From positions 4,645-68,644 of the forward strand of contig JAGVLW010000107.1 of assembly GCA_020054105.1 (NCBI GenBank): a stretch of DNA of 64,000 nucleotides, in the 5' to 3' direction. The notes beneath the pieces are model-generated. The model had not been told where the DNA came from, searched no databases, and was given only the letters and a program-made list of their open reading frames with translations. Source of the stretch: Alphaproteobacteria bacterium (lineage in GTDB: Bacteria > Pseudomonadota > Alphaproteobacteria > Rickettsiales > SXRF01). This document shows, piece by piece, positions 3,549 to 52,270 of the stretch (position 1 is its first letter; each line of letters opens with the position of its first letter). Made by a program: the position numbers and the translations under genes.

Positions 3549-4013
3549 ATGGAACTATCGATCGTCTATGTCTGGCTGATTGTCGGCGTGGTGCTCATGC
3601 TGCTCGAAGCGTTCGGCCTGCCCGGCATGGGCATGTTCTTTGCCGGGCTGGGCGCGCTGACCGTCGGATTGCTGGTGAGCTTCGATACCATCATCCCCGA
3701 AGACTCGCTCATGCAGTTCATTTTCTTTTTCGCCACGACCATCGTGTGGGCGGTGCTATTATGGAAACCGCTGCAGCAATTCAAGGTCGGGAAAAAAGCG
3801 CAGAGCTACGCCAACATCGTCGGCGACACCGCCTATGTCGGCAGCAGCGGCATCAGCAAAAAAGACGGCGGCGAAGTCACCTGGTCGGGCACGATCATGA
3901 AAGCCCGCCTCGATGCCGCCAGCCTGCCGGAATGCCTGGAAGCCGGCGCGCAGGTCATCATCACCGAAATCACCGGCAATGTGCTGACGGTAAGGCCCAA
4001 AACAGGGAATTGA
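3549..4013 (+). CDS. NfeD-family membrane protein
   Basis: Three N-terminal TM helices and a C-terminal soluble beta domain lie directly upstream of an SPFH/stomatin gene, the classical nfeD-SPFH pairing. Its TGA stop lies in the first unit of repeat A1. Confidence 0.7.
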   Translation: MELSIVYVWLIVGVVLMLLEAFGLPGMGMFFAGLGALTVGLLVSFDTIIPEDSLMQFIFFFATTIVWAVLLWKPLQQFKVGKKAQSYANIVGDTAYVGSSGISKKDGGEVTWSGTIMKARLDAASLPECLEAGAQVIITEITGNVLTVRPKTGN

Positions 4014-11964: not shown

Positions 11965-13305
11965 ATGCATCAGCAAAACACCATCTTCGCCCTTGCCACG
12001 CCCCCTGTCCGCTCCGGCGTGGCGGTCATACGCATTTCCGGCGACCGCGCCCTGCCCGCCCTCGCCCAGCTCACCGGCAAAGCCGACTGGCAGCCCAACC
12101 TCGCCCGCTATACTTCCTTTTCACGAGCCACGAATCACGAGCCACGAGCCACGATCGATAGCGGCCTCGCCTTTTATTTCAAAGCCCCAAAGAGCTTCAC
12201 CGGCGAGGATGTCGCCGAGCTGCATTGTCATGGCAGCCTCGCCGTCATACGCGAGCTGCTGGAGGCACTGGCGGCGATTGAAGGGCTGCGCCCCGCCGAG
12301 CCGGGCGAATTCACCCGCCGCGCCTTTCTAAACGGTAAAATGGATCTGGTCGAGGCCGAGGGGCTGGCCGACCTCATCGAGGCGGAAACGCCAGCGCAGC
12401 GCAAGCAGGCGCTGTCGCAAATGCAGGGCGAGGCAAGCCGGCGCTACGAAGCGTTGCGCGGCCAGATCGTCCAGGCGCTGGCCCATCTCGAAGCGTTCAT
12501 CGATTTTCCCGAGGAGGAGATACCGGCATCGCTGCTGGATGGCATCAAGCGGCAAATCGAAACTTTGACGGCGGCGATCGAAACCGCGCTGGCCGACGAT
12601 CGGCGCGGCGAGCGCGTGCGCGGCGGCATCCGCGTCGTCATCCTGGGCGCGCCCAATGTCGGCAAGTCGAGTTTGCTCAACCGGCTGGCCGGGCGCGACG
12701 CCGCCATCGTATCGGCCAGGGCAGGGACGACGCGTGACGTCATCGAGGTGCATATGGAGTTGGGCGGCTTCCCGGTCATCCTCACCGATACGGCGGGCCT
12801 GCGCGAAAGCGGCGACGATATCGAGGAAGAGGGGATCCGTCGCGCCATGGCCCGCGCTGAGGAGGCCGACATCAAGCTGGTGCTGTTCGATGCCAGCCAG
12901 GGCGGGCAGGACGAGCAGAGCAGGGGACTAATTGGAGATAATACATTGATAATTAATAATAAAGCAGATTTATTGCAATCACGAATCACGAACCACGAAT
13001 CACGAACCACGTTCTTCATCTCCACCCAAACCGGCCACGGGCTAGAAGAGATGCTTTCGGCGCTGGAGCAAAAAATCAGCGCCATGTTTCATACGGCCAA
13101 TGCACCGCTCATCACCCGCAGCCGGCACCGTGCCTTGCTTACCGAGGCACTTGCCTGCCTTGAGCGCCTTAATTGGCACGCGCCGCTGGAGCTGACCTGC
13201 GAGGAGCTGCGGCTGGCCGGGCGCGCCATCGGCAAAATCACTGGCAAAATCGCGGTGGATGATGTATTGGACGTCATCTTTAAGCAGTTTTGCATAGGGA
13301 AGTGA
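11965..13305 (+). CDS. mnmE: tRNA uridine-5-carboxymethylaminomethyl modification GTPase MnmE (TrmE)
   Basis: IFALATPPVRSGVAVIRISG, GAPNVGKSSLLN, DTAGLRE and NKADL G-motifs, plus the diagnostic C-terminal FCIGK. Contains heptamer arrays B1 and B2. Confidence 0.95.
   Translation: MHQQNTIFALATPPVRSGVAVIRISGDRALPALAQLTGKADWQPNLARYTSFSRATNHEPRATIDSGLAFYFKAPKSFTGEDVAELHCHGSLAVIRELLEALAAIEGLRPAEPGEFTRRAFLNGKMDLVEAEGLADLIEAETPAQRKQALSQMQGEASRRYEALRGQIVQALAHLEAFIDFPEEEIPASLLDGIKRQIETLTAAIETALADDRRGERVRGGIRVVILGAPNVGKSSLLNRLAGRDAAIVSARAGTTRDVIEVHMELGGFPVILTDTAGLRESGDDIEEEGIRRAMARAEEADIKLVLFDASQGGQDEQSRGLIGDNTLIINNKADLLQSRITNHESRTTFFISTQTGHGLEEMLSALEQKISAMFHTANAPLITRSRHRALLTEALACLERLNWHAPLELTCEELRLAGRAIGKITGKIAVDDVLDVIFKQFCIGK
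12122..12155. repeat. Family B heptamer array (B1), single arm, in frame in mnmE
   Basis: CACGAGC CACGAAT CACGAGC CACGAGC CACGATC, encoding SRATNHEPRAT. Confidence 0.85.
12979..13011. repeat. Family B heptamer array (B2), single arm, in frame in mnmE
   Basis: CACGAAT CACGAAC CACGAAT CACGAAC CACG, encoding SRITNHESRTT. The orientation and frame match B1. Confidence 0.85.
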
Positions 13306-20311: not shown

Positions 20312-20979
20312 AGCAGACTGTCGAAAATGCCCTTGTTGCCCTTGGGCACCGGCCTGATCGTCGGCACCTCGTTCTCGTCGGGAATCTTGTTGGTTTTTTC
20401 TTCCAGCGGCAGGGGTTCTTCGGGCAGGGGCTGCTTGCGCGGCGGCGCGACATAGCCAGCAGTCAGGAAAGGCGCCAGCCGCTGGCGGTACATCTCGCCC
20501 AGTTCGCCGATGCCACGCTTGACGGCGTCTTCCTCGGAAATATAGGTCGAGAAATAGGCGCCGGTGACGTTGTTATAGCTGCTGACATGACGGACATTGC
20601 CGGTGGTGACGACCGCATCGTCGCTGTTGCGTATCAGCTTATATTGCGAATAGAGATGGACGTTATAGCGCGACACTGTGCCGTCGCGGGCGATGCCGAT
20701 GGGGCTGGCGGTACTGGTAAGGCTCGCATTCAGGCGATAGGCGGGATTGACCGGCACCGCGCCGCCGGGGTTGAGATTATCTTCCAGCGCGAATTTGAGG
20801 AGCTGGCTGTCGCGGTCGCGCCCGACAGGCTCGATACTCACCCCGGCCAGCGACTTGGGAACCGCGCCGTCTTTCTTGCCGTAGACCGGCTGGAAGCCGC
20901 AGGCGGTAAACCAGAAAACAGGCAACAGGTAACAGGTTACGGAAAATATCTTTCTTATCCGCCACCTGACACCTGACAC
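20308..20979 (-). CDS. lptE: LPS-assembly lipoprotein LptE
   Basis: Lipobox FWFTAC followed by GFQPVYG, and the position between leuS and holA fits. The track ORF (to 21060) overlaps the leuS 3' end. I favour GTG 20979, 8 nt after the leuS stop, with ATG 21003 as the alternative. The start and signal peptide are encoded by repeat C4. Confidence 0.65.
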   Translation of the reverse strand: MSGVRWRIRKIFSVTCYLLPVFWFTACGFQPVYGKKDGAVPKSLAGVSIEPVGRDRDSQLLKFALEDNLNPGGAVPVNPAYRLNASLTSTASPIGIARDGTVSRYNVHLYSQYKLIRNSDDAVVTTGNVRHVSSYNNVTGAYFSTYISEEDAVKRGIGELGEMYRQRLAPFLTAGYVAPPRKQPLPEEPLPLEEKTNKIPDENEVPTIRPVPKGNKGIFDSLL

Positions 20980-20988
20980 CTGTAACCT
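20917..20988. repeat. Family C heptamer inverted array (C4) at the leuS/lptE junction
   Basis: AACAGGCAACAGGTAACAGGTTACGG - loop - CCGCCACCTGACACCTGACACCTGTAACC. It contains the leuS stop and the lptE start and signal-peptide codons. Confidence 0.85.
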
Positions 20989-23707
20989 AATTTGCGACCA
21001 CATTGACGATCCTGTTGGGCACGACGATGATTTTAACGACCGTTTTATCTTTAAGCGCATCCTTGACGGCTTGCAACTCCAATGCGGCGCGCTCGGCTCC
21101 GGCCTTATCCATATCCCTGGGCAAATTCAGGGTGCCCTTGAGCTTGCCGTTGATCTGCACCGCCACCGTCACCTCGTCATCGGCAAGCAGCGCGGCATCG
21201 GCCACCGGCCAGGCCGACTGGGTCAACGATTCCTTATGGCCGAGCTGCTGCCATAATTCCTCGGCCAGATGCGGCATGAAGGGCGCGATGAGGCGAACTA
21301 CGGCATCGATGGTTTCCGCGATTGCAAAGGCCGTTTCCGGGGCAGGGGCGGCGTTATTTGCCGTCATCTCCCCCAGCAGGTTCGTCAGCTCGCGGATACG
21401 CGCGATCGCCTTGTTGAAATGGAACCGCTCGATGTCGTCGGTGACGGCGGCGATGGTTTGGTGGGTGGCCTTGCGTAGGCGCAAGGAGTCGTTAGTCGTT
21501 AGTTGTGAGTCGTTAGTATTTTCCTTGCTAACGACTAGCGACTTATGACTAACGACTAACTTCCACAATCTTTGGATATAGCGCCAAGCGCCTTCGATGC
21601 CGGCGTCGGTCCATTCCAAATCGCGCTCGGGCGGGCTGTCGGAAAGCATGAATAGCCGCGCCGCGTCGGCGCCGTAGCTTTCCATGATATGGCGCGGGTC
21701 GACGGTGTTTTTCTTCGATTTGCTCATTTTTTCAACGCGGCCGACGGTGACGGGCTTGCCGGTTTTTAATTCGATAACGATAGGTGACAGGTGACGGGTA
21801 ACAGGTGACAGAGGAGTATCTTCTGTTGCCTGTTGCCTGTTATCTGTTTCCTCTATCCTCACTTCCTCCGGCGAGAGCCACTTGCCGTCCGCCGATTTAT
21901 AGGTCTCGTGGCAGATCATGCCCTGGGTTTCCAGCCGCTTGAACGGCTCGGGAGGAACCGAAAACCCGCACTTCGCCAAAGCGCGGCAAAAAAACCGCGA
22001 ATAGAGCAAATGCAGCACCGCATGCTCGATGCCGCCGATATAGCAATCGACCGGCAACCATTTTTCCACCGCTTTTGGCTCGAGCGGGTCGGGCGAGGGC
22101 AGTGTGGCGAAACGGGCGAAATACCAGGAAGATTCGAAGAAGGTGTCGAACGTGTCGGTCTCGCGCCGGGCAGGCTTGTCGCAGGCCGGGCAGGCCACAT
22201 GCTTCCAGGTCGGGTGGCGCTCCAGCGGGTTGCCGGGCTTGTCGAACGTTACGTCGCGCGGCAACTCCACCGGCAGGTCTTTTTCGGGAACGGGAACCGC
22301 GCCGCAGCCGTCGCAATAAATAATCGGGATCGGGCAGCCCCAGTAACGCTGGCGGGAAATGCCCCAGTCGCGCAGGCGGTAGTTGATTTTAGCCTTGCCG
22401 GCGCCGCGTTTTTCCAGCTCGGCGATGGCTTTTTGCTTGGCCTCTTCGACAGAAAGACCGTTTAGGAAATCGGAATTGATGAGGGTGCCGTCGCCTAAGT
22501 AAGGTAAGTCCTTAGTCGTAAGTCGTGAGTCGTTAGTAGTATTTTCGCTAACGACTAACGACTCAGGACTAACGACCGGAAGTATAGGCAGCCCATATTT
22601 CACCGCGAATTCATAGTCGCGCTGGTCGTGGGCCGGGCAGCCGAAAATCGCGCCGGTGCCGTAATCCATCAGCACGAAATTGGCAACGTATAGCGGTACT
22701 TCCCGCCCGTCGAACGGATGGATGATTTTCAGGCCGGTATCGAAGCCTTTTTTCTCGGCCTTCTCGATCGCCTCCTGGCTGGTGCCGAGCTGGTTGCATT
22801 CGGCGATGAAAGCAGAGAGTCTAGAGTCTAGAGTCGAGAGTCGAGTAGACAAAGGATGGTTTGACGCAATAGCGCAAAAGGACATGCCGAAAATAGTATC
22901 CGGCCGGGTGGTATAAATTTCTAAGTCCTTAGTCGTTAGTCCATAGTCGTAAGTGGAATCTTGGTTACTAACGACTAACGACTCACCACTAACGACTTGA
23001 AGACGTAATGTTGCGCCGGAGGACTTACCAATCCATTTCTCCTGCATGAGGCGAACTTTTTCCGGCCAGGCGTCAAGCGACGCCAGGCTTTGCAAAAGCT
23101 CCTCGGCGTAATCGGTGATGCGCAAGAACCACTGCGATAATTTGCGCCGCTCCACCGGCGCGCCGGAGCGCCAGCCGCGCCCGTCGATCACCTGCTCGTT
23201 GGCCAGCACCGTGTTATCTACCGGGTCCCAATTCACCTCGGCTTCTTTGCGGTAGGCAAGGCCGGCTTCGAGGAATTTCAGGAAAAAACGCTGCTCATGC
23301 TTGTAATAGTCCGGCAAGCACGTCGCCAGCTCGCGCGACCAGTCGTAGGACAGGCCGATCAGCCCCAGCTGTTCGCGCATGGTGTCGATATTGGCGAGCG
23401 TCCAGTCCTGCGGATGCGCGCCGCGCTCGATGGCGGCGTTCTCGGCGGGCAGGCCGAACGCGTCCCAGCCCATCGGGTGCAGCACCGCAAAGCCCTGCAT
23501 CTGCTTGGCGCGCGCCACCACGTCGCCCAGCGTGTAGTTGCGCACATGGCCCATATGGATGTTGCCGGAAGGGTAGGGGAACATCTCGAGCACATAATAG
23601 TTCGGCTTGCCGCCGGCGTTGCTTGCGGCAAAGCTTTGCGCCTGCCGCCAATGGCGCTGCCACTTTGCTTCGGTCTCGCGAAAATTATAGCGGGAAGGTT
23701 CGGTCAT
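20987..23707 (-). CDS. leuS: leucine--tRNA ligase
   Basis: [13 protein letters not shown] (HIGH) and KMSKSKKN (KMSKS) motifs within full-length LeuS sequence. Carries five heptamer-array segments in frame. Confidence 0.95.
21487..21560. repeat. Family D heptamer inverted array (D1), in frame in leuS
   Basis: AGTCGTTAGTCGTTAGTTGTGAGTCGTTAGT - ATTTTCCTTGC - TAACGACTAGCGACTTATGACTAACGACTAAC, encoding [25 protein letters not shown]. Confidence 0.9.
21782..21851. repeat. Family C heptamer inverted array (C5), in frame in leuS
   Basis: AGGTGACAGGTGACGGGTAACAGGTGACAG - loop - CTGTTGCCTGTTGCCTGTTATCTGTTTCC, encoding [23 protein letters not shown]. Confidence 0.9.
22496..22576. repeat. Family D heptamer inverted array (D2), in frame in leuS
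   Basis: TAAGTAAGGTAAGTCCTTAGTCGTAAGTCGTGAGTCGTTAGT - AGTATTTTCGC - TAACGACTAACGACTCAGGACTAACGAC, encoding [27 protein letters not shown]. Confidence 0.9.
22814..22850. repeat. heptamer array AGAGTCT/AGAGTCG (D4), single arm, in frame in leuS
   Basis: AGAGTCT AGAGTCT AGAGTCG AGAGTCG AGTAGAC, encoding [11 protein letters not shown]. Confidence 0.8.
22921..22996. repeat. Family D heptamer inverted array (D3), in frame in leuS
   Basis: CTAAGTCCTTAGTCGTTAGTCCATAGTCGTAAGT - GGAATCTTGGT - TACTAACGACTAACGACTCACCACTAACGAC, encoding [26 protein letters not shown]. Confidence 0.9.
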
Positions 23708-23715
23708 GTTTAATA

Positions 23716-23839
23716 GGAGAATTGAAGAAATGAGGAATTGAAGAATTGAGGAAATATAGTGCAGTTATAAAATGCGATTGTCTTATTCTTCATTTCTTCA
23801 TTTCTTCAGTTCCTCATTTCTTCAGTTCCTCATTTCCCC
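23716..23839. repeat. Family A octamer inverted array (A2), between the DUF3576 gene and leuS
   Basis: GGAGAATTGAAGAAATGAGGAATTGAAGAATTGAGGAAAT - 29-nt loop - ATTCTTCATTTCTTCATTTCTTCAGTTCCTCATTTCTTCAGTTCCTCATTTCCCC. Confidence 0.9.
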
Positions 23840-23842
23840 TTC

Positions 23843-25878: not shown

Positions 25879-26607
25879 ATGACACTGGCGGCAGCGGTGG
25901 AAACAATCCGTAAAACCATAGAAAAAACAGCTAAAAACAGGCTGTTGTCCACGGATTCCGTCACCTTGCTGGCCGCCAGCAAAGGGCAGTCGGCGGCGCG
26001 TATCGAGGAAGCCATCGCCCTGGGCGTAGCGGTTTTCGGGGAAAACAAGGTGCAGGAGGCGGCCGAGAAATGGCCGGCCATCAAGCAACGCCACCAGAAT
26101 GTGGCGCTCCATCTCATCGGCCCGCTGCAAACCAACAAGGTGAAAGACGCGCTGGCACTGTTTGACGTGATTCAAACGCTGGATAGGCCTTCGCTAGCGA
26201 ATTCGCTAGCGAAGGAATTGAAGAATTGGGGAAATGAAGAATTGAAGAAAAAAGAATCTTCAATTCCTCAATTCTTCAATTCCTCAATTCCCACTTTCTA
26301 CATCCAAATCAACACCGGCGAAGAGCCGCAGAAAGCCGGGGTTTTACCAAAAGACGCCGACGCCTTTATTGAAGATTGCGTTACAGGATTGAAGCTACCG
26401 GTCGTCGGGTTGATGTGCGTGCCGCCGGCAGATCAGCCGCCGGCGCCGCATTTCGCGCTGCTGCGCACGATCGCGCTTCGTCATGGGTTGCGTGAACTCA
26501 GCATGGGCATGAGCGGCGATTATGAAACGGCGATTCGGATGGGCAGCACATGCGTGCGGGTGGGGACGGCGTTGTTTGGGGAGAGGAAGCGGGAATTGGA
26601 GAAATGA
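25879..26607 (+). CDS. yggS: YggS-family pyridoxal-phosphate homeostasis protein
   Basis: LLAASKGQS (PLP lysine), FGENKVQEA, HLIGPLQTNKVK and LSMGMSGDYETAI motifs. The start is set at ATG 25879 with AAGG upstream; the track uses TTG 25864. Contains repeat A3, and the stop lies inside repeat A4. Confidence 0.85.
   Translation: MTLAAAVETIRKTIEKTAKNRLLSTDSVTLLAASKGQSAARIEEAIALGVAVFGENKVQEAAEKWPAIKQRHQNVALHLIGPLQTNKVKDALALFDVIQTLDRPSLANSLAKELKNWGNEELKKKESSIPQFFNSSIPTFYIQINTGEEPQKAGVLPKDADAFIEDCVTGLKLPVVGLMCVPPADQPPAPHFALLRTIALRHGLRELSMGMSGDYETAIRMGSTCVRVGTALFGERKRELEK
26191..26292. repeat. perfect 22-bp palindrome plus Family A octamer inverted array (A3), in frame in yggS
   Basis: TCGCTAGCGAATTCGCTAGCGA is a perfect palindrome. 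It is followed by AGGAATTGAAGAATTGGGGAAATGAAGAATTGAAGAA - AAAAGAAT - CTTCAATTCCTCAATTCTTCAATTCCTCAATTCCC. Together they encode SLANSLAKELKNWGNEELKKKESSIPQFFNSSIP. Confidence 0.92.
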
Positions 26608-30079: not shown

Positions 30080-31036
30080 TTAAACAGCCTCGGCGCCGGA
30101 GATAATCTCGATGAGTTCCTTGGTGATGCTGGCCTGGCGGGTGCGGTTATATTTCAGGTTCAGCTTCTTGATCATCTCGCCGGCATTGCGCGTGGCATTG
30201 TCCATCGCGCTCATGCGCGCGCCTTGTTCGCTGGCCGCGTTTTCCAGCAGCGCGCGATAAATCTGCACGCCGAGATTACGCGGCAATAAATCGGCGAGGA
30301 TCTCGCCTTCTTCGGGTTCGTAGTCGTAGGGGATGTCGTTCGTCGCTCGTCGCTCGCCGCTCGCATTGCCGAGCGACGAATCGCTAGCGACGAGCAGCGG
30401 AATTAATTGCTGCCAGGTCACCACCTGCGAGATGGCGGATTTGAACGTGTTATAGACGATATGGGCGACGTCGAACTCGCCGGCGGCGAATTTTTCGGCG
30501 ACAAGCGTCGAGATGGCCTGCGCGTCGCCGTAGCCAATCTTCTTTTTGGCAAGCTCGGATTTATGGACGATGAGCTTGGAAAATTCGAGCTGTAGCTGCT
30601 CGGCGCCCTTGCGGCCGACGCACATCAGCTTCACCGTTTTTCCCTGCACCTGCAGCTCGCGGATCTTGCGGCGCGCCGCGCGCACGATCGAGCTGTTGAA
30701 ACCGCCGCACAGGCCGCGGTCGCCGGTCGCGACAATGACCAGATGCGTGTTGTTTTTGCCAGTGCCGGAAAGAAGAGGATGGGAAGAATTGAGGAATTGA
30801 GGAATTGAAGAATCGCCTTTTTCTTCAGTTCCCCAATTCTTCATTTCTTCATTTCGCTGGGAAGCAGCTAAGCTTACCAGCAACCGCTCCATCGCCACGG
30901 AATAAGGACGCGCCGCCTCGGCGGCTTCCTTGGCCCGGCGCAGTTTCGCCGCCGCCACCATCTTCATCGCCTTGGTGATCTTCTGCGTCGATTTGACCGA
31001 CTTGATGCGGTTTTTAAGGTCTTTTAAGCTGGGCAT
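30080..31036 (-). CDS. atpG: F1 ATP synthase gamma subunit
   Basis: [35 protein letters not shown] at the N-terminus and [21 protein letters not shown] at the C-terminus. Two repeat-encoded segments (A5, D5) make it about 25 residues longer than usual. Confidence 0.92.
30336..30395. repeat. heptamer inverted array CGTCGCT type (D5), in frame in atpG
   Basis: GTCGTTCGTCGCTCGTCGCTCGCCGCTCGC - ATTGCC - GAGCGACGAATCGCTAGCGACGAGC, encoding [21 protein letters not shown]. Confidence 0.85.
30775..30856. repeat. Family A octamer inverted array (A5), in frame in atpG
   Basis: GAAGAATTGAGGAATTGAGGAATTGAAGAAT - CGCCTTTT - TCTTCAGTTCCCCAATTCTTCATTTCTTCATTTC, encoding [24 protein letters not shown]. Confidence 0.9.
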
Positions 31037-34846: not shown

Positions 34847-36982
34847 CTACAAAAACCCCACCGGATCAATATCCACCTTCACGCGCACGGAGGAGGGGGC
34901 TTTGACCGATTCCACCCAGCCCTTGACGAAATCCGGCAGGTTGATGCTGCGCGCGGCCTTGACGAGCAGGCGGTAGCGGTATTTGCCGCGCAGGCGGTAC
35001 AGCGGGGCGGGGGCGGGGCCGAGGAGGGTGACGGGTGACAGGTGACGGGTGACGGATAAGCCCTCCCCCTTGAGGGGGGAGGGTTGGGAGGGGGTGTGAG
35101 GTGGTTGGGAGGGGGTGACAGTGAAATTGGCCGCTAACAATTTAGTCGTGCGTATTACCGCGTCTTCTTTGGTGCCTTCGATGATGACGGCGGCGAGGCG
35201 CGAGAAAGGCGGCATATGGGCGTTTTCGCGGGCCTGTAATTCGGCTTGCAGGAAGGCCTCGCGGTCGCCCGACAGCAGCGCCTGCATCACCGGATGCTCG
35301 GGCAGGTAGCTTTGCAGATAGACCCGCCCGCGCACGCTCTCGCGCCCGGCGCGGCCCGAAAGCTGGTGTAAAAGCTGGTAGGTTTTTTCCGCCGCGCGCA
35401 GATCGCCGCCGCCCAGTCCCAAATCGGCATCGACGACACCGACCACGGCAAGACCGGCAAAATGATGCCCCTTGGCGATCATCTGCGTGCCGATGAGCAG
35501 GTCGATATTTCCTTCCTGCATGCCGGTGATGGCGTCTTTGAGTTCCTGGTAGCCGGAAAGCTGGTCGCTGGCCATGACGGCTACGCGCGCCTGCGGCAAA
35601 AACTCATGCACCTCCTCGAGCACGCGCTCGACGCCGGGACCGCACGCATGCAAACTATCCGCCGCGCCGCAGGACGGACAGGCGGGAGGAACGGGCTGGG
35701 TGTAGCCGCAATGATGACATTCCAGCCGCGGCTTGCCTTTATGGGCGACCAGCCAACTCGAACACTCAGCACATTCGAAGCGGTGGCCGCAATGGCGGCA
35801 GAGCACTAGCGGCGCATAGCCGCGGCGGTTGAGAAACAACATCGCCTGGTGGTTAGAGGCAATAGTTTGCGCGAGCGCGGCGCGCAGCTTGTCGGAAATA
35901 AACTTTCCGCGCTCGGTCGGCGCGCTGCGCATATCGAGCATTTCCACCTCCGGCAATACTGCATGGTTATGACGCGCCGGCAGCGACACTTCCTTATATT
36001 TTCCGGTTTTGACATTGTGATAGCTCTCGAGCGACGGCGTGGCCGACACCAGCACCACCGGCAATTTCTCGAAACGCCCGCGCGCCACCGCCATGTCGCG
36101 CGCATGGTAGATCGTGCCTTCTTCTTGCTTGTAAGAACCATCATGCTCCTCATCGACGACAATCAGCGATAAATTCCTGTATGGTAAAAACAACGCCGAG
36201 CGAGCGCCGACCACCACGCGCGCATCGCCCTTGGTAATGGCCTGCCAGCCGGCGCGTTTCTGGGCGGGTGTTACTTGCGAATTCCATACCACCGGCGCGA
36301 AACCGAAACGCTTCTCGAAACGCTCCAGCCATTGGACGGAAAGAGCGATTTCGGGCAGGAGGACGAGGATTTGGGAAGGAGGGAATTGAGGAATTGAGGA
36401 ATTGAGGAATTGAGGAATGGGAGCATCTTTTTTCTTCAATTCTTCATTTCTCCAATTCTTCATTTCTGTGCGCTGCAAAGCGCAAGCCACCGCGTCGAAA
36501 TACACTTCCGTTTTACCCGAGCCGGTAACGCCGTCGAGCAGCGTCACCGAAAATCCCTTGCCGATAGGTTCTTCCAAGGCGCTCGCGGCTTTTCGCTGCG
36601 CGTCCGAGAGTTTTGCCAGATGCAGATGATCGGTATCGATAGCGGTTTCAATCGTCGTGCGGCCGGTCTTGGCGATATCGGCAACCGGCAGCACCATCTT
36701 GAGCACAGCGCCCAGGGGCGCGCAATTATACCACGCCGCCCAGGCGATGAATTCGCGCATCGCAATCGATAGCGGCGGGAATTCGCTGTGATGGATTTTA
36801 ATTGGCTTTATTTTTTCGGAAGCGATCTTGGCTTTGCCTTCGCCCCACACCACGCCCAGCGATTGCCCGCGGCCAAACGGTACCGAGACGATGTCGCCGG
36901 GCGCCAGCGTCATGGTCTCGGGCACGACATAATCGAAGCCGTGGTCGAACGCGCCGGGCAGCAGGACTTCCAGTTGTTTCAT
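34847..36982 (-). CDS. priA: primosomal replication restart helicase PriA
   Basis: [14 protein letters not shown] Walker A, DEEHD box, and a Cys-rich zinc region ([21 protein letters not shown]...CHHCGY...CPSCG). Carries repeats A7, C6 and E2 in frame. Confidence 0.9.
35027..35055. repeat. Family C heptamer array (C6), single arm, in frame in priA
   Basis: GGTGACG GGTGACA GGTGACG GGTGACG G, encoding [10 protein letters not shown] on the minus strand. Confidence 0.85.
35061..35118. repeat. Family E element (E2), in frame in priA, adjacent to C6
   Basis: CCCTCCCCCTTGAGGGGGGAGGGTTGGGAGGGGGTGTGAGGTGGTTGGGAGGGGGTGAC, encoding [18 protein letters not shown] on the minus strand. The plus-strand orientation matches E1. 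Confidence 0.85.
36374..36466. repeat. Family A octamer inverted array (A7), in frame in priA
   Basis: GGGAATTGAGGAATTGAGGAATTGAGGAATTGAGGAAT - GGGAGCATCTTTT - TTCTTCAATTCTTCATTTCTCCAATTCTTCATTTC, encoding [29 protein letters not shown]. Confidence 0.92.
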
Positions 36983-37700: not shown

Positions 37701-38434
37701 GCACGCAGCAAAAAGACAAGGCCAAAGCTACGCTGACCGCCGAACAGGTGCGCGGCTATCTGAAATCGCACCCGGACTTTCTCAAGAAAAACGCCGACAT
37801 GTTCGAAGGCCTGACGCCGCCTGCGCGCGAGCTCGGCGACGGCATCCTCGACTTCCAGCATTTCATGGTCAAGAACCTGCAAAAAGACAGCAAGGACCTC
37901 AAAGGCAAATACGAGCTGCTGATCGATTTTTGCCGCGACAACATGTCGGCGCAAAGCCAGGTGCACCAGGCGGCGCTGCGGCTGATCCGCGCGCGCAACC
38001 TCGAGCAATTGCTCGAAGCGGTGACGCAGGATTTGCTGAGCCTGTTCGACGTCGACGTCGTGCGCCTGGCCATGGAATCGGACATATTGCTCGACACCTC
38101 CTACGGCGACCAGGTCTATTCCGGCATCGTGTTCATCGAGCCGGGCACGAGCGTGGCGGCGTTGGGCGCTAAGAAGAACGTGCTGCTGGTCGATGATTGC
38201 ACCAAAAATCCGCCGCCGGGCTTCGAGCAGATTTTCGCCGACTGCGCCGGGCTGATCGAATCGTGCGCACTGCTCAAGCTCGAGCTCGAGATGGTCGATA
38301 AAAATATCCTGCTCGCTTTCGGCGTGCGCCACAAAGACCGTTTCCATAGCGGACAAGGCGTCGAGCTGCTGCATTTCCTGGCGCAAATCGTCGCGCACCA
38401 GCTCGATATTTACCTGGCGGATTTGACGGTGTGA
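37697..38434 (+). CDS. DUF484-family protein (YigA-like)
   Basis: 245 aa with N-terminal [12 protein letters not shown]. It lies immediately upstream of, and overlaps, xerC, which is the conserved DUF484-xerC pairing. Confidence 0.7.
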
Positions 38435-39357
38435 GTGAAAGGCTCCCGATCACCGGCGGATTGAACCAATCGGCGGAGGCATTTTTACACTGGCTGGAAA
38501 ACGTCAAGCGCGCCTCGCGCCACACGGTTATTTCCTATCAAAACGATCTCGGCCATTTTTTCACGTTCCTGTCTGGGCATTACGGCGCGAAAATCAACCT
38601 GTCGCATCTCAAGAAATTGCCGGCCCGGGACATCCGCGCCTGGCTGGCCTCGCGCCTGGCCGATTACGAGGCGGCGTCCAACGCCCGCGCGCTGTCGGCG
38701 ATTAAGCGGTTTTACCGCTGGCTGGAAAAAGAAGAGGGGGTGGAAAACGCCGCCATTTTCCACATACGCGGCCCCAAGCTCGGCAAGCCGCTGCCCAAGG
38801 CGCTGGGCGAGGCGCAGGCGGCGCAGGCGCTGGAATTCATCGCCACCCAGCATGAGGAAGCCTGGCTCAATGCCCGCGACCTCGCGCTGCTTTTGCTGAT
38901 GTATGGTTGCGGCCTGCGCATCGGCGAGGCGTTGTCGCTGTCGCCGGGCGACGTCCAGGGCGTCGATGCGCTGCGCATTACCGGCAAGGGCAATAAGCAG
39001 CGGCTGGTGCCGATGCTGCCGGTGGTCGCGCAGGCCATCGACACTTACAAATCTCTCTGCCCGCACCCGCTTTCCGCCAGCGCGCCGCTTTTTGTCGGCA
39101 AGCAGGGCAAGGCGCTCGATCCGGCTATTTTCCAGCTGCAGCTGCGCAAGCTGCGTACCGCCCTCAACCTGCCCGACAGCGCCACGCCGCACGCCTTCCG
39201 CCACAGCTTCGCCACCCACCTGCTTTCGGCCGGCGGTGATTTGCGCACCATCCAGGAATTGCTAGGCCACGCCTCGCTATCGACGACGCAACGCTATACG
39301 CATGTCGATAAGACCCGGCTGCTAAGCGCCTATCGCCAGGCGCATCCGAGAAAATAA
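38431..39357 (+). CDS. xerC: tyrosine site-specific recombinase XerC
   Basis: GLRIGEALSL, HAFRHSFATHLL and LLGHASLSTTQRYTHV contain the catalytic R..HxxR..Y set. GTGA overlap with the DUF484 gene. Confidence 0.9.
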   Translation: MSERLPITGGLNQSAEAFLHWLENVKRASRHTVISYQNDLGHFFTFLSGHYGAKINLSHLKKLPARDIRAWLASRLADYEAASNARALSAIKRFYRWLEKEEGVENAAIFHIRGPKLGKPLPKALGEAQAAQALEFIATQHEEAWLNARDLALLLLMYGCGLRIGEALSLSPGDVQGVDALRITGKGNKQRLVPMLPVVAQAIDTYKSLCPHPLSASAPLFVGKQGKALDPAIFQLQLRKLRTALNLPDSATPHAFRHSFATHLLSAGGDLRTIQELLGHASLSTTQRYTHVDKTRLLSAYRQAHPRK

Positions 39358-39393
39358 AAAAAGGGCGCAAACTACTTGTTCGCGCCCTTTTTA
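39356..39393. terminator. bidirectional terminator between convergent xerC and the dockerin-repeat gene
   Basis: A-run, then GGGCGCAAAC...GTTCGCGCCC stem (one bulge), then T-run. Confidence 0.7.
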
Positions 39394-39412
39394 GCGGAGG
39401 AAAATTACTTGG

Positions 39413-40240
39413 TTAGACGAACTCGTCCAGCAGCGACAGCTTGCCCGCCAATAGCTGGTTGGTCGGCTTATCGGTGCTGCCCGTCACGGCCGGGGGCTCC
39501 GGCTTGATCGGGGTGATGGTCACGCCGGCAAGAGGGCCGTCCGTTTTATCGGGCCCGCCCGCCAGGGCTACTTGCTTATTGGCCAGGCCGGCGATCGTGC
39601 CGACATTCTGGCCGAAATAGGCCTGGGCGATTTTTAAGTCGGCGCCGTCGACAGTGCCGTCATTGTTGATGTCGGACGCGCCGCCTTTAGCGCCATAATT
39701 GCTGAGAATGGCGGTGATGTCCTTGAAATTCACCTGGCCGTCGCCGTTGGCATCGCCGAAATCCTGGGTGGTGTATTGCTTGCGGGTGGCGTTGCCGACA
39801 TCGGTGCCGAAGCGGCTGAGCACGATGTTCTTGTCGGCATCGTTGATATTGCCGTCGCCATTGAGGTCGCCGTTGCCACCGGACTTGCCGTATTGGGCCA
39901 GCAGCGCGGTTACGTCGCTAAACGCTACCTTGCCGTCACCGTCTATGTCGCCAAGCAGGGCGTTCAACCCGGAGGCTTGCGGCGCCGGCTTTATTGGCAG
40001 CTGGGAAGTGATGGGTGGGGTGCGCACCGGCTGCGCAACGACAGGCGGCTCGGCGATGGGCGCGGTTGCCTGTGGCAGACGCGAAGCCTGCTTAACCACA
40101 TTGATATTCGCGGTAAGCGCCTGCGGCCTTACATTGGCAGAAAGCTGTTGCGGCGATTGCGCGGCGGTTTTGATTTTTAATCGCTTCAGGGAAGCGTAAG
40201 CCTGCGTGACCGCAGACAAAGATGCGATGGTATTTGACAT
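39413..40240 (-). CDS. dockerin-repeat (calcium-binding loop) protein, no Sec signal
   Basis: Two dockerin type I-like modules, each with paired DxNxDGxxxxxD loops: DIDGDGKVAFSDVTALL..DLNGDGNINDADKNIVL and DANGDGQVNFKDITAIL..DINNDGTVDGADLKIAQ. A Pro/Gln-rich linker is present. Confidence 0.6.
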   Translation of the reverse strand: MSNTIASLSAVTQAYASLKRLKIKTAAQSPQQLSANVRPQALTANINVVKQASRLPQATAPIAEPPVVAQPVRTPPITSQLPIKPAPQASGLNALLGDIDGDGKVAFSDVTALLAQYGKSGGNGDLNGDGNINDADKNIVLSRFGTDVGNATRKQYTTQDFGDANGDGQVNFKDITAILSNYGAKGGASDINNDGTVDGADLKIAQAYFGQNVGTIAGLANKQVALAGGPDKTDGPLAGVTITPIKPEPPAVTGSTDKPTNQLLAGKLSLLDEFV

Positions 40241-40532
40241 ATGATCCTCCTGATCGTCTTACTGTTGATACATTCAACCTAACAAATCTAATCCCGTTCT
40301 ACTTAAAAGTCAACCCGGCATATAGTTATTTAGCCGATAAATCCGTACGATATTCCTAAGAATTACTTAATGCGCCATGCTTATAGTAATAACATATATA
40401 TAGGGTATGCAACTACCGTGCCAGCCCACCGCACAGGAAATCCGCGGGTAATTTTAGGCAGGTAGGCAAGGAGCATAGGCAACGGATTCCTTCTTTGCAC
40501 AGCCCCGGCAAATAGTGTAATACACCTCCCAC

Positions 40533-40609
40533 GCACCCGTAGCTCAGCTGGATAGAGCGTTGCCCTCCGAAGGCAAAGGTCGCACGTTCGAATCGTGTCG
40601 GGTGCGCCA
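40533..40609 (+). tRNA. tRNA-Arg (anticodon CCG), CCA encoded
   Basis: Hand-folded cloverleaf: acceptor GCACCCG/CGGGTGC, D-arm GCTC..GAGC, anticodon stem TTGCC/GGCAA with loop CTCCGAA, T-arm GCACG-TTCGAAT-CGTGT, discriminator G plus CCA. Confidence 0.9.
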
Positions 40610-40810
40610 CCCTCCCAAACATAGCAAAACCTTAAATCACCATATATTGTGGTCAATATTTGTATTAATCTATATACAGTATGGCCGGATAAGAAATATG
40701 ACCGTTCCGACACGGAACTGTCATAGTAATGTAACAACTAAAACATTGTAATTTATATATATTTTTCATATAATGAGCATGTCTGGGATAGATTTCCTAT
40801 CGCAGATTAT

Positions 40811-40869
40811 GGTTCGCACATGACGGACTATGTTTTGTAAACATTAACTTATGGATGTGCGGTTTTTTT
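40811..40869 (+). promoter_or_regulatory. structured 5' leader / terminator-like stem upstream of virB2 paralog 1
   Basis: Outer stem CGCACAT...ATGTGCG enclosing inner hairpin ATGTTT-TGT-AAACAT, followed by T7. It lies 33 nt before the ATG. Confidence 0.55.
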
Positions 40870-40901
40870 AATTTAACAACAACAAAAAGAAGGGTGATTT
40901 T

Positions 40902-41330
40902 ATGAAGCCCCCAATTAAAGACCTAAGTACTAAAGACCTAAGCATCGCATGGCAATCTTGTTTGATGATCATGCTCTGCGCCGTCATCGCCATGATGCCG
41001 GATTTTGCCCTTGCACAGATTACTCCTAGAAATACACCGATGGGTAACGTATTGTGCTCCGTGGCTGGTTGGTTTACCGGCAACACGGGTAAGGGCCTTG
41101 CCACCATTGCCATCACCGTCATCGGTATCGGCGCACTCTTGGGTAAAGTATCCTGGGGTATGGCGATCATCGTCGGTGTCGGCGTTGCCATCGTGTTCGG
41201 CGCTGCCGGTATCGTCAGCGCGATGAACGCTGGCGCAGGCGATGTAAACACCACCTGCACTACAGGTGGCGGTGCAGGAGCTCTTCCCCCTCCCGGTGGA
41301 GATTTTATCCCGCCGATTGGAGCTGACTAA
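40902..41330 (+). CDS. virB2: VirB2/TrbC-family type IV secretion pilin, paralog 1
   Basis: A long signal peptide ends ALA/Q. Then NVLCSVAGWFTGNTGKGLATIAITVIGIGALLGKVSWGMAIIVGVGVAIVFGAAG parallels A. tumefaciens VirB2 (NNICTFILGPFGQSLAVLGIVAIGISWMFGRASLGLVAGVVGGIVIMFGA, from memory). Confidence 0.75.
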   Translation: MKPPIKDLSTKDLSIAWQSCLMIMLCAVIAMMPDFALAQITPRNTPMGNVLCSVAGWFTGNTGKGLATIAITVIGIGALLGKVSWGMAIIVGVGVAIVFGAAGIVSAMNAGAGDVNTTCTTGGGAGALPPPGGDFIPPIGAD

Positions 41331-41353
41331 TTTATATTATTTGGTGCAAAAAA

Positions 41354-41382
41354 ACCTTGCCGGAGCAATCCGGCAAGGTTTT
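41354..41382 (+). terminator. Rho-independent terminator after virB2 paralog 1
   Basis: ACCTTGCCGG-AGCAAT-CCGGCAAGGT followed by TTT. Confidence 0.75.
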
Positions 41383-41588
41383 ACAGACGGAAAATTCTAC
41401 GCGTAGTAGCGCTGAAGCCGTTATTATACGATATATAGCGGGAAAAAATTTAATTTAAGAAATATTCAGAAATATGCGCCGCCTATCACCGCCCACGGTC
41501 ACACAATTGTCACAAATAAAACTTTGTATTGGGTGAGTATTTTATCTAGACTGATCTTATCTGCTACAGATTTGTCTGTGACAGATAT

Positions 41589-41652
41589 GGTTCGCATATG
41601 ACGGTCTTCCTGCCTTTTTACAGGCACAGCCTATGGATATGCGGTTTTTTTT
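41589..41652 (+). promoter_or_regulatory. structured 5' leader / terminator-like stem upstream of virB2 paralog 2
   Basis: Outer stem CGCATAT...ATATGCG (a compensatory C>T/G>A change relative to copy 1) enclosing inner hairpin TGCCT-TTTTAC-AGGCA, followed by T8. Confidence 0.55.
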
Positions 41653-41683
41653 AATTGAAGTACAAGTCAAAGGGTAATTGTTT

Positions 41684-42037
41684 ATGAAAACCCAAACCAA
41701 AGACTTAAGCATCGCTTGGCAATCCTGCTTGATGGTCATGCTTGCTGCCGTCATCGCTATGATGCCGGACTTCGCTTACGCACAGATCGTTTCCCGCAAT
41801 ACGCCGATGGGTAACGTACTGTGCACCGTGGTTGGCTGGTTCACCGGCAACACCGGCAAGGGCCTTGCCACCATCGCTATCACCGTTATCGGTATCGGCG
41901 CACTCCTGGGTAAAGTATCCTGGGGTATGGCGATCATCGTCGGCGTTGGCGTTGCCATCGTATTCGGCGCTGCCGGTATCGTGGACAGCATGGGCGGCGG
42001 CGTCAACAACGCTTCCACCGGCGGTTGCACCACCTAA
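41684..42037 (+). CDS. virB2: VirB2/TrbC-family type IV secretion pilin, paralog 2
   Basis: The core is near-identical to paralog 1 (NVLCTVVGWFTGNTGKGLATIAITVIGIGALLGKVSWGMAIIVGVGVAIVFGAAG), but the C-terminal tail differs. The first ATG is at 41684; the track uses TTG 41678. Confidence 0.75.
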   Translation: MKTQTKDLSIAWQSCLMVMLAAVIAMMPDFAYAQIVSRNTPMGNVLCTVVGWFTGNTGKGLATIAITVIGIGALLGKVSWGMAIIVGVGVAIVFGAAGIVDSMGGGVNNASTGGCTT

Positions 42038-51019: not shown

Positions 51020-52270
51020 ATGTATTTCAGTCATCGCATCAACGATGGTTTCGAGAAAACGCGGACGGACGCGCTGCTGGCGCAGCTGCAGCCGGCGCTT
51101 GCGCGCCTGCAATCGCGCCGCAACCTTGAGGCGACGCCGCTGCTGGAGTTGCCGTTTCGCAGCGACGACATAGCCGCGCTGGAAACATTGGCGGCAAAAA
51201 TACGCGGCCGCTACAAGCATGTCGTCATCGCCGGCGCCGGCGGCTCCGGGCTTGGCGGCAAGGCGCTATGCGCCTTTGCGCCTACGCATTTGTCGCCGCG
51301 CCTGCATTTTCTCGAAAATATCGACCCCGACAGTATCGCGCAGACGCTGGCGCAGATCGACGCGAAAGACACCTGCTTTATCGTCATCAGCAAATCGGGA
51401 AGCACCGTCGAGACGCTCGGCCATTTCCACGTGCTGCTCGAACATGCGAAAGCGGCGATAGGCGAAGCGCATTTCGCCGAACAGTTCATCGTCATTACCA
51501 CGGCGGCACATAATCCGATGCGCGCCACCGCCAGCCATTACGGCATGCCTGTGCTCGATCATGCGGATAATATCGGCGGGCGTTTTTCCGTGCTCACCAA
51601 TGTTGGATTGCTACCCGCCGCCATCGCCGGGCTCGACATACGCTCCCTGCGCAAAGGCGCTGCCGCCATTGTCAAAATGCTCGACGCGGCAACAACGCCC
51701 GCCGATTGCGAAAGCGCGCTGGGCGCTGCCTTGCAATATGGCTTCATGGAAAAAGGCTGCAACGTCAGCGTCATGATTCCCTATAGCGAACGACTGTCCG
51801 GTTTTTCGAGTTGGTACCGGCAAAGCTGGGCCGAAAGCCTCGGCAAGGCCGGCAAGGGCACGACGCCGATCCGCGCCGTCGGCACCACCGACCAGCACAG
51901 CCAGCTCCAGCTTTATCTCGACGGGCCCAAGGACAAGCTCTTTCACCTCATCACCGTAAAACGCGCCGGCACCGGCCAGTGCATTCGCCTTCCCGGCCCG
52001 TCGGAATTTTCCTATCTCGACGGCAAAACCACCGGCGACATCATGGAAGCGCAGCAGCAGGCCACCCTCGCAACACTGATCCAGCACCGCTGCCCGGTGC
52101 GCCATTTCGCGCTGGAGAAACTCGACGAAGAACATCTGGGCGCGCTGTTCATGCATTTCACGCTGGAAATTATTTTCATGGCCGAGCTGTTGGGTTGCAA
52201 CCCGTTCGACCAGCCCGCCGTCGAGGAAAGCAAGCGCCTGTCGCGCCAACATATGCAGGGCGGCCTATGA
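51020..52270 (+). CDS. pgi: glucose-6-phosphate isomerase (short bacterial type)
   Basis: VIAGAGGSGLGGKAL, IVISKSGSTVETL, GGRFSVL, and the TDQHSQLQLYLDGP motif. Confidence 0.85.
   Translation: MYFSHRINDGFEKTRTDALLAQLQPALARLQSRRNLEATPLLELPFRSDDIAALETLAAKIRGRYKHVVIAGAGGSGLGGKALCAFAPTHLSPRLHFLENIDPDSIAQTLAQIDAKDTCFIVISKSGSTVETLGHFHVLLEHAKAAIGEAHFAEQFIVITTAAHNPMRATASHYGMPVLDHADNIGGRFSVLTNVGLLPAAIAGLDIRSLRKGAAAIVKMLDAATTPADCESALGAALQYGFMEKGCNVSVMIPYSERLSGFSSWYRQSWAESLGKAGKGTTPIRAVGTTDQHSQLQLYLDGPKDKLFHLITVKRAGTGQCIRLPGPSEFSYLDGKTTGDIMEAQQQATLATLIQHRCPVRHFALEKLDEEHLGALFMHFTLEIIFMAELLGCNPFDQPAVEESKRLSRQHMQGGL

Follow-up and report, generated by a model that had tools for sequence, protein, structure and literature searches.

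Ogata and colleagues are said to have described, in Science in 2000 and in Genome Research in 2002, Rickettsia palindromic elements (RPE) that lie in frame in housekeeping genes and are translated. RPE are mentioned in PMC1779305 and PMC10969869. Here we analyzed a 64,000-nucleotide stretch of an alphaproteobacterial genome (Alphaproteobacteria bacterium, Rickettsiales, SXRF01; assembly GCA_020054105.1, contig JAGVLW010000107.1, forward-strand positions 4,645 to 68,644; hereafter, the window) in which leuS, the gene for leucyl-tRNA synthetase (LeuS), carries five in-frame arrays of tandem 7-nt units, built either as hairpins of two inverted arms (D1, D2, D3, and C5) or as a single arm (D4). 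Like RPE, the arrays are dispersed hairpin repeats in an alphaproteobacterium that lie in frame in housekeeping genes (leuS, kdsB, mnmE, a yggS-like gene, atpG, and priA), appear to be translated, and occupy surface sites predicted to be tolerated, with D3, D2, and C5 falling in loops modelled at low confidence. Their predicted hairpins are also stable, with folding free energies of −28 to −52 kcal/mol for D1, D2, D3, and C5 compared to approximately −14 to −18 kcal/mol for shuffled sequences. They differ from RPE in that the latter are 100 to 150 bp long and have a family-wide consensus without tandem 7- or 8-nt units, whereas the leuS-type elements measure ∼70 to 80 nt, have arms of ∼31 nt that are themselves runs of tandem units, and have only the 7-nt unit in common between copies, with different loops. 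Moreover, D4 replaces native sequence at unchanged length, and the units turn over at fixed positions.

Other described systems share parts of this architecture. Nematomorph mitochondrial genomes contain perfect inverted repeats of up to 284 bp, without tandem substructure, in essential protein-coding genes, where both arms are coding and secondary structure and coding must compromise (PMC6649704). A similar arrangement is found in relatives of the window, in which the D3 and D4 sites form a pair of 27- to 32-bp arms separated by ∼90 nt of conserved coding sequence; both arms are coding in six relatives, and in the window itself the pairing is weak (score of 8). In contrast to the palindromes of animal mitochondria, these are bacterial, have short arms of tandem heptamers, belong to many families, and also occur between genes. 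The cyanobacterial STRR or "long SSR" sequences and the TAACTGA repeats of Beggiatoaceae and Cyanobacteria consist of 7-nt units in 2 to 6 copies; these arrays are nearly all intergenic direct repeats, and Beggiatoa has one dominant unit and one inverted set (PMC4679880; PMC4692102). The arrays studied here are likewise scattered head-to-tail 7-nt arrays, found as such at all five leuS sites, and where an array can lie relative to ORFs (open reading frames) is restricted by the stops in its unit, a constraint that is explicit for TAACTGA. Unlike these repeats, however, inverted pairs are the rule here, more than 10 units coexist, roughly half of the window's arrays lie in ORFs, and many are translated. 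The repetitive extragenic palindromes (REP) and bacterial interspersed mosaic elements associated with RAYT transposases are extragenic imperfect palindromes of 20 to 40 bp with GTAG or CGTC tags (PMC3733652). They resemble the present arrays as abundant short imperfect palindromes dispersed in a proteobacterial genome, but the D, C, and 8-mer units lack a GTAG or CGTC tag, many arrays are intragenic, and the arms have tandem substructure. Finally, template switching has been documented as both creating and repairing stems (PMC8794818, PMC8604942, PMC5941160), and homogenization of quasi-palindromes by this route (see also PMC7202029) fits the mirrored irregular units at D3 and D4 and the indel-free D4; such mutagenesis is known as a sporadic process and is not described as shaping clade-wide tandem-unit hairpins at conserved positions of essential genes. 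In the literature that we searched, no description of tandem-heptamer hairpins was found for conserved positions of essential genes in Alphaproteobacteria, which is no proof of novelty, and a search of the window against Rfam gave one tRNA as the only match above the gathering score, with no array matched. What is surprising at this locus is the conservation of array positions, the concerted turnover of units, and a covarying coding palindrome formed by D3 and D4.

With its HMGH and KMSKS motifs, the leuS product is a full-length leucyl-tRNA synthetase, whose best full-length matches in the Protein Data Bank were the enzymes of N. gonorrhoeae (6q89), E. coli (3zgz/4aq7), and T. thermophilus (1h3n), with E-values from 1e-252 (6q89) to 1e-230. 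As noted in the first-pass annotation of this DNA, LeuS is longer than usual: its 906 aa exceed by ∼50 aa the median of 857 aa among the 119 closest relatives (range, 805 to 923). The LeuS proteins nearest to this one belong to uncultured alphaproteobacteria, labelled by source as "Alphaproteobacteria," "Rickettsiales," or "Pseudomonadota bacterium," and are 61 to 72% identical over the whole protein and 64 to 78% identical in conserved columns; outgroup alphaproteobacterial LeuS among the matches listed were 52 to 59% identical. We located the arrays with Tandem Repeats Finder (TRF) and by direct reading of the sequence (Table 1). TRF returned a period of 7 and 3.4 to 5.4 copies at the five leuS sites, and a two-unit D probe (AGTCGTTAGTCGTT, at most 2 mismatches) matched the window 18 times compared to 0.11 expected. 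All five arrays are in frame and free of stops, and the peptides deduced earlier for D1, D2, D3, C5, and D4 agreed with our reading, as did the altered second units AGTCATA, AGTCCTG, and AGTGGTG in leuS and AGTCATG in kdsB. Two generalizations from that annotation were too broad. The complementary arm reads GAC TCA, as proposed, in D1 and D2, but GAC TAT in D3, and the peptide pattern VVSx...LTT that had been assigned to all copies does not extend to kdsB, whose single arm encodes VVVSHESSVAG and has no LTT arm.

Table 1. Positions of leuS and of the repeat arrays in the window.
Feature	Positions	Strand	Unit and location
leuS ORF	20987-23707	minus	906 aa, single intact ORF
D1 hairpin array	21487-21517 + 21528-21560	minus	AGTCGTT/AACGACT; aa 716-742; start of anticodon-binding domain (first inter-helix region)
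C5 hairpin array	21782-21811 + 21823-21852	minus	plus-strand arms GGTGACA x4.3 / CTGTTGC x4.3; aa 619-643
D2 hairpin array	22504-22541 + 22548-22576	minus	AGTCGTT/AACGACT; aa 378-402; variable loop of CP1 editing domain
D4 single-arm array	22815-22845	minus	GAGAGTC x4.4, sense CTCGACT/CTAGACT; aa 288-298; editing-domain helix-turn
D3 hairpin array	22922-22954 + 22967-22997	minus	AGTCGTT/AACGACT; aa 237-262
kdsB single-arm D-family array	2275-2301	minus	in frame; CTP_transf_3
mnmE arrays	12122-12154 + 12977-13011		CACGAGC / CACGAAT; in frame; direct, not inverted; ∼850 nt apart
C-family hairpin	20910-20985		directly past leuS stop codon, in 5′ part of lptE-like ORF, ahead of lipoprotein signal
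8-mer hairpin array	23714-23840		GAATTGAA/TTCTTCAT; −55 kcal/mol; fills 136-nt DUF3576-leuS spacer
yggS-like gene 8-mer hairpin	26210-26295		in frame
atpG arrays	30335-30364 + 30786-30855		7-mer; 8-mer hairpin; in frame
priA arrays	35020-35135 + 36378-36470		GGGTGAC array beside G-rich GGGAGGGG repeat; 8-mer hairpin; in frame

Each of the five leuS sites is either at the boundary of a domain or in a loop between domains. D3 is in the β-strand linker entering the editing domain, just ahead of TTRPDT, and C5 is in a variable insertion just N-terminal of KMSKS that we take to belong to the leucine-specific domain. In an AlphaFold2 model of LeuS with a mean predicted local distance difference test (pLDDT) of 85.5, the D3, D2, and C5 segments formed loops of low confidence (pLDDT of 44 to 63; C5, 44 to 52), the D1 segment was helical (75 to 85), and the D4 segment lay within confident helices (88 to 93). 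The D4 array still provides the conserved L, A, N/D, and L of the motif HPLAxxLAxxNxxLxxF. Judging from the model, the five sites appear to be permissive positions that tolerate arrays. The earlier suspicion that D4 is a replacement rather than an insertion was borne out, in that the alignment is gap-free against E. coli (HPLAQKAAENNPELAAFI), against Neisseria, and against almost all of the 119 relatives.

We then considered how the reading frame stays open. Because 7 and 3 are coprime, (AGTCGTT)n reads as a single cycle of 7 codons, V V S R * S L, in every frame, and the fixed position of the stop-removing change is therefore a matter of geometry and not of frame choice. Non-coding D-type hairpins in metagenome contigs, which contain perfect runs of up to 13 units, kept TAG or TAA at 57 of 79 unit junctions (72%), and the out-of-frame junctions of coding copies kept them at 32 of 47 (68%; Fisher's exact test against non-coding junctions, P = 0.69). 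At in-frame junctions of coding copies, none of 16 retained a stop (P = 4e-8 compared to non-coding and P = 8e-7 compared to out-of-frame junctions). The comparison of coding with non-coding copies that the first-pass annotation had called for thus places TAG/TAA loss at in-frame coding junctions only. This result favors coding-specific selection for stop removal, which is expected of an essential ORF; stop avoidance in the arrays was a correct observation, but an expected one.

Several details of the earlier proposal required revision. Removal of the stop by a change in the second unit holds for D1 to D3 but is incomplete, since whole-unit replacement in C5 had been overlooked: the sense-strand arm of C5 has GGCAACA in every unit where the perfect complement would be GGTGACA, which contains TGA, and GGCAACA has no stop in any frame. 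Units without stops are also found in D4 (CTCGACT) and in relatives (CTTGCCA and CTTGCAA). There are thus two routes of escape, a fix at a single junction (D1 to D3) or exchange of the whole unit (the GGCAACA arm of C5 and the CTCGACT of D4). The fixed position of the fix reflects shared ancestry together with the 7-nt/3-nt geometry rather than independent selection each time (AGT CCN in four genomes, AGT CAY in two). Nor is arm length set by the next TAG, just before which the arrays had been said to end, for the stop-free units CTTGCCA, CTTGCAA, and CTCGACT form arms of the same length (4.3 to 4.6 units). In nearly every array of the clade the arm has ∼4.4 units whether or not the unit contains a stop, and its length of ∼31 nt is independent of stop content.

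These data bear on whether the segments reach the mature protein at all. Loss by removal from the mRNA, by ribosome bypass of the type known from yeast mitochondrial byp elements and T4 gene 60, or by excision from the protein could be imagined for short stable hairpins inside an essential gene, and the low AlphaFold2 confidence at D3, D2, and C5 would agree with it. Bypass elements, however, are undecoded and bring stops or a frame shift, whereas the arrays in ten leuS genes and in kdsB, mnmE, the yggS-like gene, atpG, and priA are all in frame and stop-free, and non-coding copies retain most of their junction stops. The Pro codon of the D2 fix drifts synonymously at its third position (see below), D4 supplies conserved structural residues to the editing domain, and neither Pfam domains nor the Rfam search of the window gave an intein or intron signature. 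We regard removal as extremely improbable; the sequence argues that the segments are translated parts of LeuS.

To place the arrays in the clade, we used a protein table of 120 LeuS relatives and the leuS DNA of nine relatives (a further one, P0005, was available as peptide only). The arrays are not five events private to this leuS copy. Ten clade genomes whose LeuS proteins are 64 to 78% identical have arrays of ∼4.4 genome-specific units at the same five positions, across a deep clade. At each of the five positions, the peptides of many relatives repeat every 7 residues and are encoded by many different units (for example, ESRESRV, SEYRVQ, GEWQVAS, SCQLPVAS, SGFRIQDS...PESRIPNPES, and SVVSDQLPEE...TDNRQLTTDN), and the DNA of the nine relatives confirmed heptamer arrays, almost always of 4.3 to 4.7 units. 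Array density at leuS loci was 3.7 to 12 per 10 kb in relatives compared to 0.86 in 80 outgroup alphaproteobacterial loci. An assembly artefact was ruled out, as the same architecture is present in independent JGI, ENA, NCBI, and Logan assemblies.

The orthology of individual arrays is clearest at D2 and D1, whose arms we aligned by hand because protein-guided alignment misplaces gaps in repeats. In the window and the relatives P0011, P0002, and P0037, the first D2 arm aligns colinearly and reads GTC GTT AGT CCN GAG/CAG TCN with N = T/A/C/G, and the array boundary and stop-fix codon are the same in all four genomes. The fix is a conserved Ser-Pro in which Pro is written CCT, CCA, CCC, or CCG, and the freedom of its third position indicates that the codon is read. 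VVSPQS-type arrays occupy the D2 site in P0005 and, with the related unit AGTCGCC, in P0060, and D1 of the window shares AGT CAT/CAC AAG with P0011. Fourfold-degenerate sites in the leuS flanks are identical between these genomes at a fraction of only 0.37 to 0.55; the arrays and their stop fixes therefore predate a deep divergence. The units themselves have changed: units 3 and 4 of the first D2 arm are alike within a genome and different between genomes (AGTCGTT twice, AGTCTCT twice, and AGTCGAT twice), the units at the D3 site lie one or two mutational steps apart (AGTCGCC, AGTTGCC, AGTTGCA, AGTGGCA, AGTCTCC, and AGTCGTT), and the D2 arms show compensatory changes at 8 of 26 pairs. In the relative P0002 (contig L082, leuS aa 604 to 658), the C5 site is occupied by an unrelated, AT-rich insertion of ∼35 aa without heptamer periodicity (...NWKVEDITTGEVPTYRVVTEKGIVNTLGFNPSSSQGMIYSDKLGNL); this site accepts other kinds of insert as well.

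An alternative is that the arrays are selfish elements similar to RPE or to miniature inverted-repeat transposable elements (MITE), of which only in-frame, stop-free hits in tolerant surface loops survive, with the same loops struck independently. Each family is present at several loci of one genome, D-type hairpins occur in taxonomically diverse contigs, and the spacer that the 8-mer hairpin occupies upstream of leuS is missing in contigs L081 and L082. Moreover, loop and end motifs (GAAAATACT; ACGACTAAGGACTTA) recur in D1, D2, and D3, with D3 being ∼79% identical to D2 and the derived ACGACTAAGGACTTA end common to both, and the mutual identity of the three, 79 to 81%, equals that of D2 orthologues between genomes; RPE would be a precedent. 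However, D4 causes no length change in ∼110 of 120 relatives and is therefore not an insertion, and the arms at the D3 and D4 sites, though 84 to 102 nt apart, are mirror images down to irregular units. Members of one family differ in their loops and termini, the D2 boundary and stop-fix codon coincide in four genomes, and the array starts merge with native residues (PVV-S, KLV-). A MITE would be a discrete element with terminal inverted repeats and a target-site duplication; D4 is of native length, the array starts run into native codons, and we noticed no target-site duplications in a search that was not systematic. The ORFs scanned in the window included no transposase, only a XerC/D-type integrase. 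We consider mobile elements unlikely. The conserved positions suggest that the leuS arrays are old, co-evolving "coding palindromes" rather than recent insertions.

The arm-to-arm relationship is most striking between D3 and D4. Among the nine relatives with DNA, six have arrays at the two sites that are reverse complements of each other, the D4 site lying 84 to 102 nt downstream (D3/D4 units of AGTTCAG/CTGAACT in P0011, AGTGGCA/CTTGCCA in P0008, AAGTTGC/CTTGCAA in P0110, GTGGATG/ATCCAC in P0017, AGTTGCC and its complement in P0115, and AGTCTCC/GGAGACT in P0002). Among the others, complementarity is weak in P0037, the score of P0032 is at background level, and P0060 has an array at neither site. 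The best ungapped scores of D3 against the reverse complement of D4 were 19.5 to 29.5 in the six genomes compared to an off-diagonal mean of 7.3 (permutation P of ∼1e-5), with Watson-Crick matches at 24 to 31 of the 27 to 32 stem positions. Two of these stems were predicted to fold at −64.5 and −76.6 kcal/mol (z = −7.8 and −9.3). The stem encloses the conserved segment coding for TTRPDT...HPL; the two arms are both in frame, that of D4 coding for a conserved helix. Irregular units are mirrored between the arms, and in P0011 a stop fix in D4 (TGA to TGT) is matched by a TTC to TAC change in the D3 arm, where no fix is needed. Since D4 never changes length, its periodicity must have been gained by templated replacement and not by insertion. 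We also examined 7-aa periodicity in the peptides of the 120 relatives, in which D3 and D4 were modestly associated (odds ratio of 3.8, P = 0.004), with the caveat that the native D4 helix already has an LA..LA period. D4 therefore appears, from these alignments, to be the distal arm of a D3-D4 inverted repeat, a relationship that the first-pass annotation had overlooked. In the window D4 is an orphan, with a best inverted match anywhere of 20/31; it may have lost its partner because a D2-type hairpin copy now occupies the D3 site. In P0008 (contig L205) and P0115 (contig L208), the D4 arm pairs with either the D3-site arm or the first arm at the D2 site, which has the same unit 219 to 233 nt away, so that two alternative long-range pairings are possible across the region coding for the editing domain.

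Such covariation raises the possibility that a nucleic-acid structure is selected in mRNA or DNA, for instance as a translational pause, an RNase III or stability element, or protein-binding DNA. Positions are kept at 64 to 78% LeuS identity while the sequences change but stay complementary, the fold z-scores are strongly negative, all five sites border or connect domains, and the D4 arm of P0008 and P0115 has a choice of partners. Against this, the pooled stem mismatches comprise 15 G·U on the antisense strand, 12 G·U on the sense strand, and 41 of other kinds, which is the random ratio. With no G·U bias on either strand, and thus no excess on the transcribed one, the data point to a process acting on DNA and not to selection on mRNA structure. 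In several coding hairpins the antisense strand in fact folds much better than the mRNA strand, at −52.2 kcal/mol (plus strand) compared to −25.1 for C5 and at −44 compared to −29 for D1, and for C5 this is because the sense arm uses the stop-free GGCAACA. In addition, intergenic copies have no consistent orientation to the flanking genes, clade members such as P0060 lack arrays at D3 and D4, the D3-D4 pairing is lost in the window, no Rfam family was matched, and a stem needs no tandem periodicity within its arms. A selected structure is thus in our view quite unlikely. We also dropped an antisense-RNA structure as a candidate, given that the C5 asymmetry arises from the stop-free arm and that the pooled mismatch classes are random.

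We lean toward an explanation in which translated arrays evolve in concert, by slippage or conversion and by arm-to-arm template switching, under selection for an open frame. The arms of ∼31 nt would form a clade-wide population, each with 4 or 5 tandem 7-nt units (8-nt in other families) and usually with an inverted partner. A point change in one unit would spread to its neighbors by slipped or register-shifted conversion and would reach the opposite arm by template switching between the inverted repeats, that is, by quasi-palindrome correction, leaving the arms complementary and their length unchanged. Purifying selection on the essential ORF would then filter for an open frame and a tolerable peptide, and the in-frame TAG, TAA, or TGA that arises every 7 codons would be removed by a junction change or by fixation of a stop-free unit. 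The sequences show the presence, reading frame, orthology, and covariation of the arrays and the coding specificity of stop loss; we infer the conversion and template-switch steps and the lack of a required hairpin function.

Several observations weigh against this concerted evolution. No template-switch or conversion event has been traced along a tree, and the ten genomes stand at about equal distances from one another, so that independent re-creation of arrays at the same permissive sites is possible. Families with a single unit are spread over many loci in one genome (D, 4 loci; C, ∼6; 8-mer, ∼8) and D-type hairpins occur in contigs with a GC fraction of 0.40 to 0.68, both of which a mobile element would fit better. 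Conserved position and covariation are also expected of a selected structure, and the model leaves the uniform arm length of ∼4.4 units unexplained. In the window itself, complementarity between D3 and D4 is limited to 11 of 13 bases.

Arrays are not confined to leuS. Of the 39 TRF rows of period 7 or 8 in the window, 36 fall in its first 37 kb (∼22 array loci) and almost none in its last 27 kb, which also contains housekeeping genes (secF, ribF, M16 peptidases, mutL, purH, and NAD-GDH). Most loci consist of an array, a loop usually of 10 to 40 nt, and an inverted array, and about half of the arrays lie in frame inside the ORFs named above. The two mnmE arrays encode SRATNHEPRAT and SRITNHESRTT. 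At the junction of leuS and lptE, P0011 has the same C family (L081, 3932 to 4003) and P0017 another unit (L206, 6644 to 6674), and lptE may actually start downstream of the junction hairpin. DUF3576 and leuS abut or overlap without a spacer in L081 and L082, and L206 has a different 7-mer hairpin at that position (3926 to 3996). At the atpG loop with the 7-mer array, contig L084 (4889 to 4968) has a hairpin with another unit, AGCGGGT/CTATCCG, and it lacks the 20-aa 8-mer insert. A metagenome scan with 14-mers gave 120 loci, mostly chance single matches, with ∼20 true hairpin arrays; AGTCGTT/AACGACT hairpins were found in contigs L108, L160, L168, L170, L143, L163, and others, and probably belong to several unrelated taxa.

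Two further regions of the window deserve mention. Positions 38431 to 42037 (48% GC) contain a XerC/D-type tyrosine recombinase (38431 to 39357), a tRNA (40533 to 40606), and tandem TrbC/VirB2 pilin genes (40902 to 41330 and 41678 to 42037), and may be the remnant of an integrated conjugative element. The longest ORF of mutL (51811 to 54072) has 753 aa, with the ATPase domain beginning only at residue ∼175; either the protein is extended at its N terminus or the start codon was placed too far upstream. The point could be relevant here, since mismatch repair affects the stability of repeats.

A bolder proposal, which we think unlikely, is that the clade keeps a second layer of information in its essential genes, in the form of hairpins at fixed positions whose sequence is free and whose ∼4.4-unit architecture and complementarity are maintained. 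If so, their upkeep would come from a dedicated homogenizing activity or from a function of the hairpins, such as cotranslational pausing at domain boundaries or a DNA-level signal, and the D3-D4 stem around the TTRPDT segment would be a conserved functional element rather than a tolerated by-product. Aside from that proposal, the leuS locus illustrates how, throughout a bacterial clade, essential genes can carry stable hairpins and still encode protein, with two separate routes for keeping an ORF open against a stop-generating repeat. In this lineage the arrays add ∼5% to the length of housekeeping proteins and may mislead alignment, gene calling, and assembly. The comparisons they offer are unusually clean, with the same positions occupied by differing units in at least 10 genomes and arms mirrored down to single irregular units, which makes the arrays well suited to tests of how inverted repeats arise and stay complementary, by template switching or by selection, and of how much change a mutational process can bring to conserved proteins while leaving them functional.

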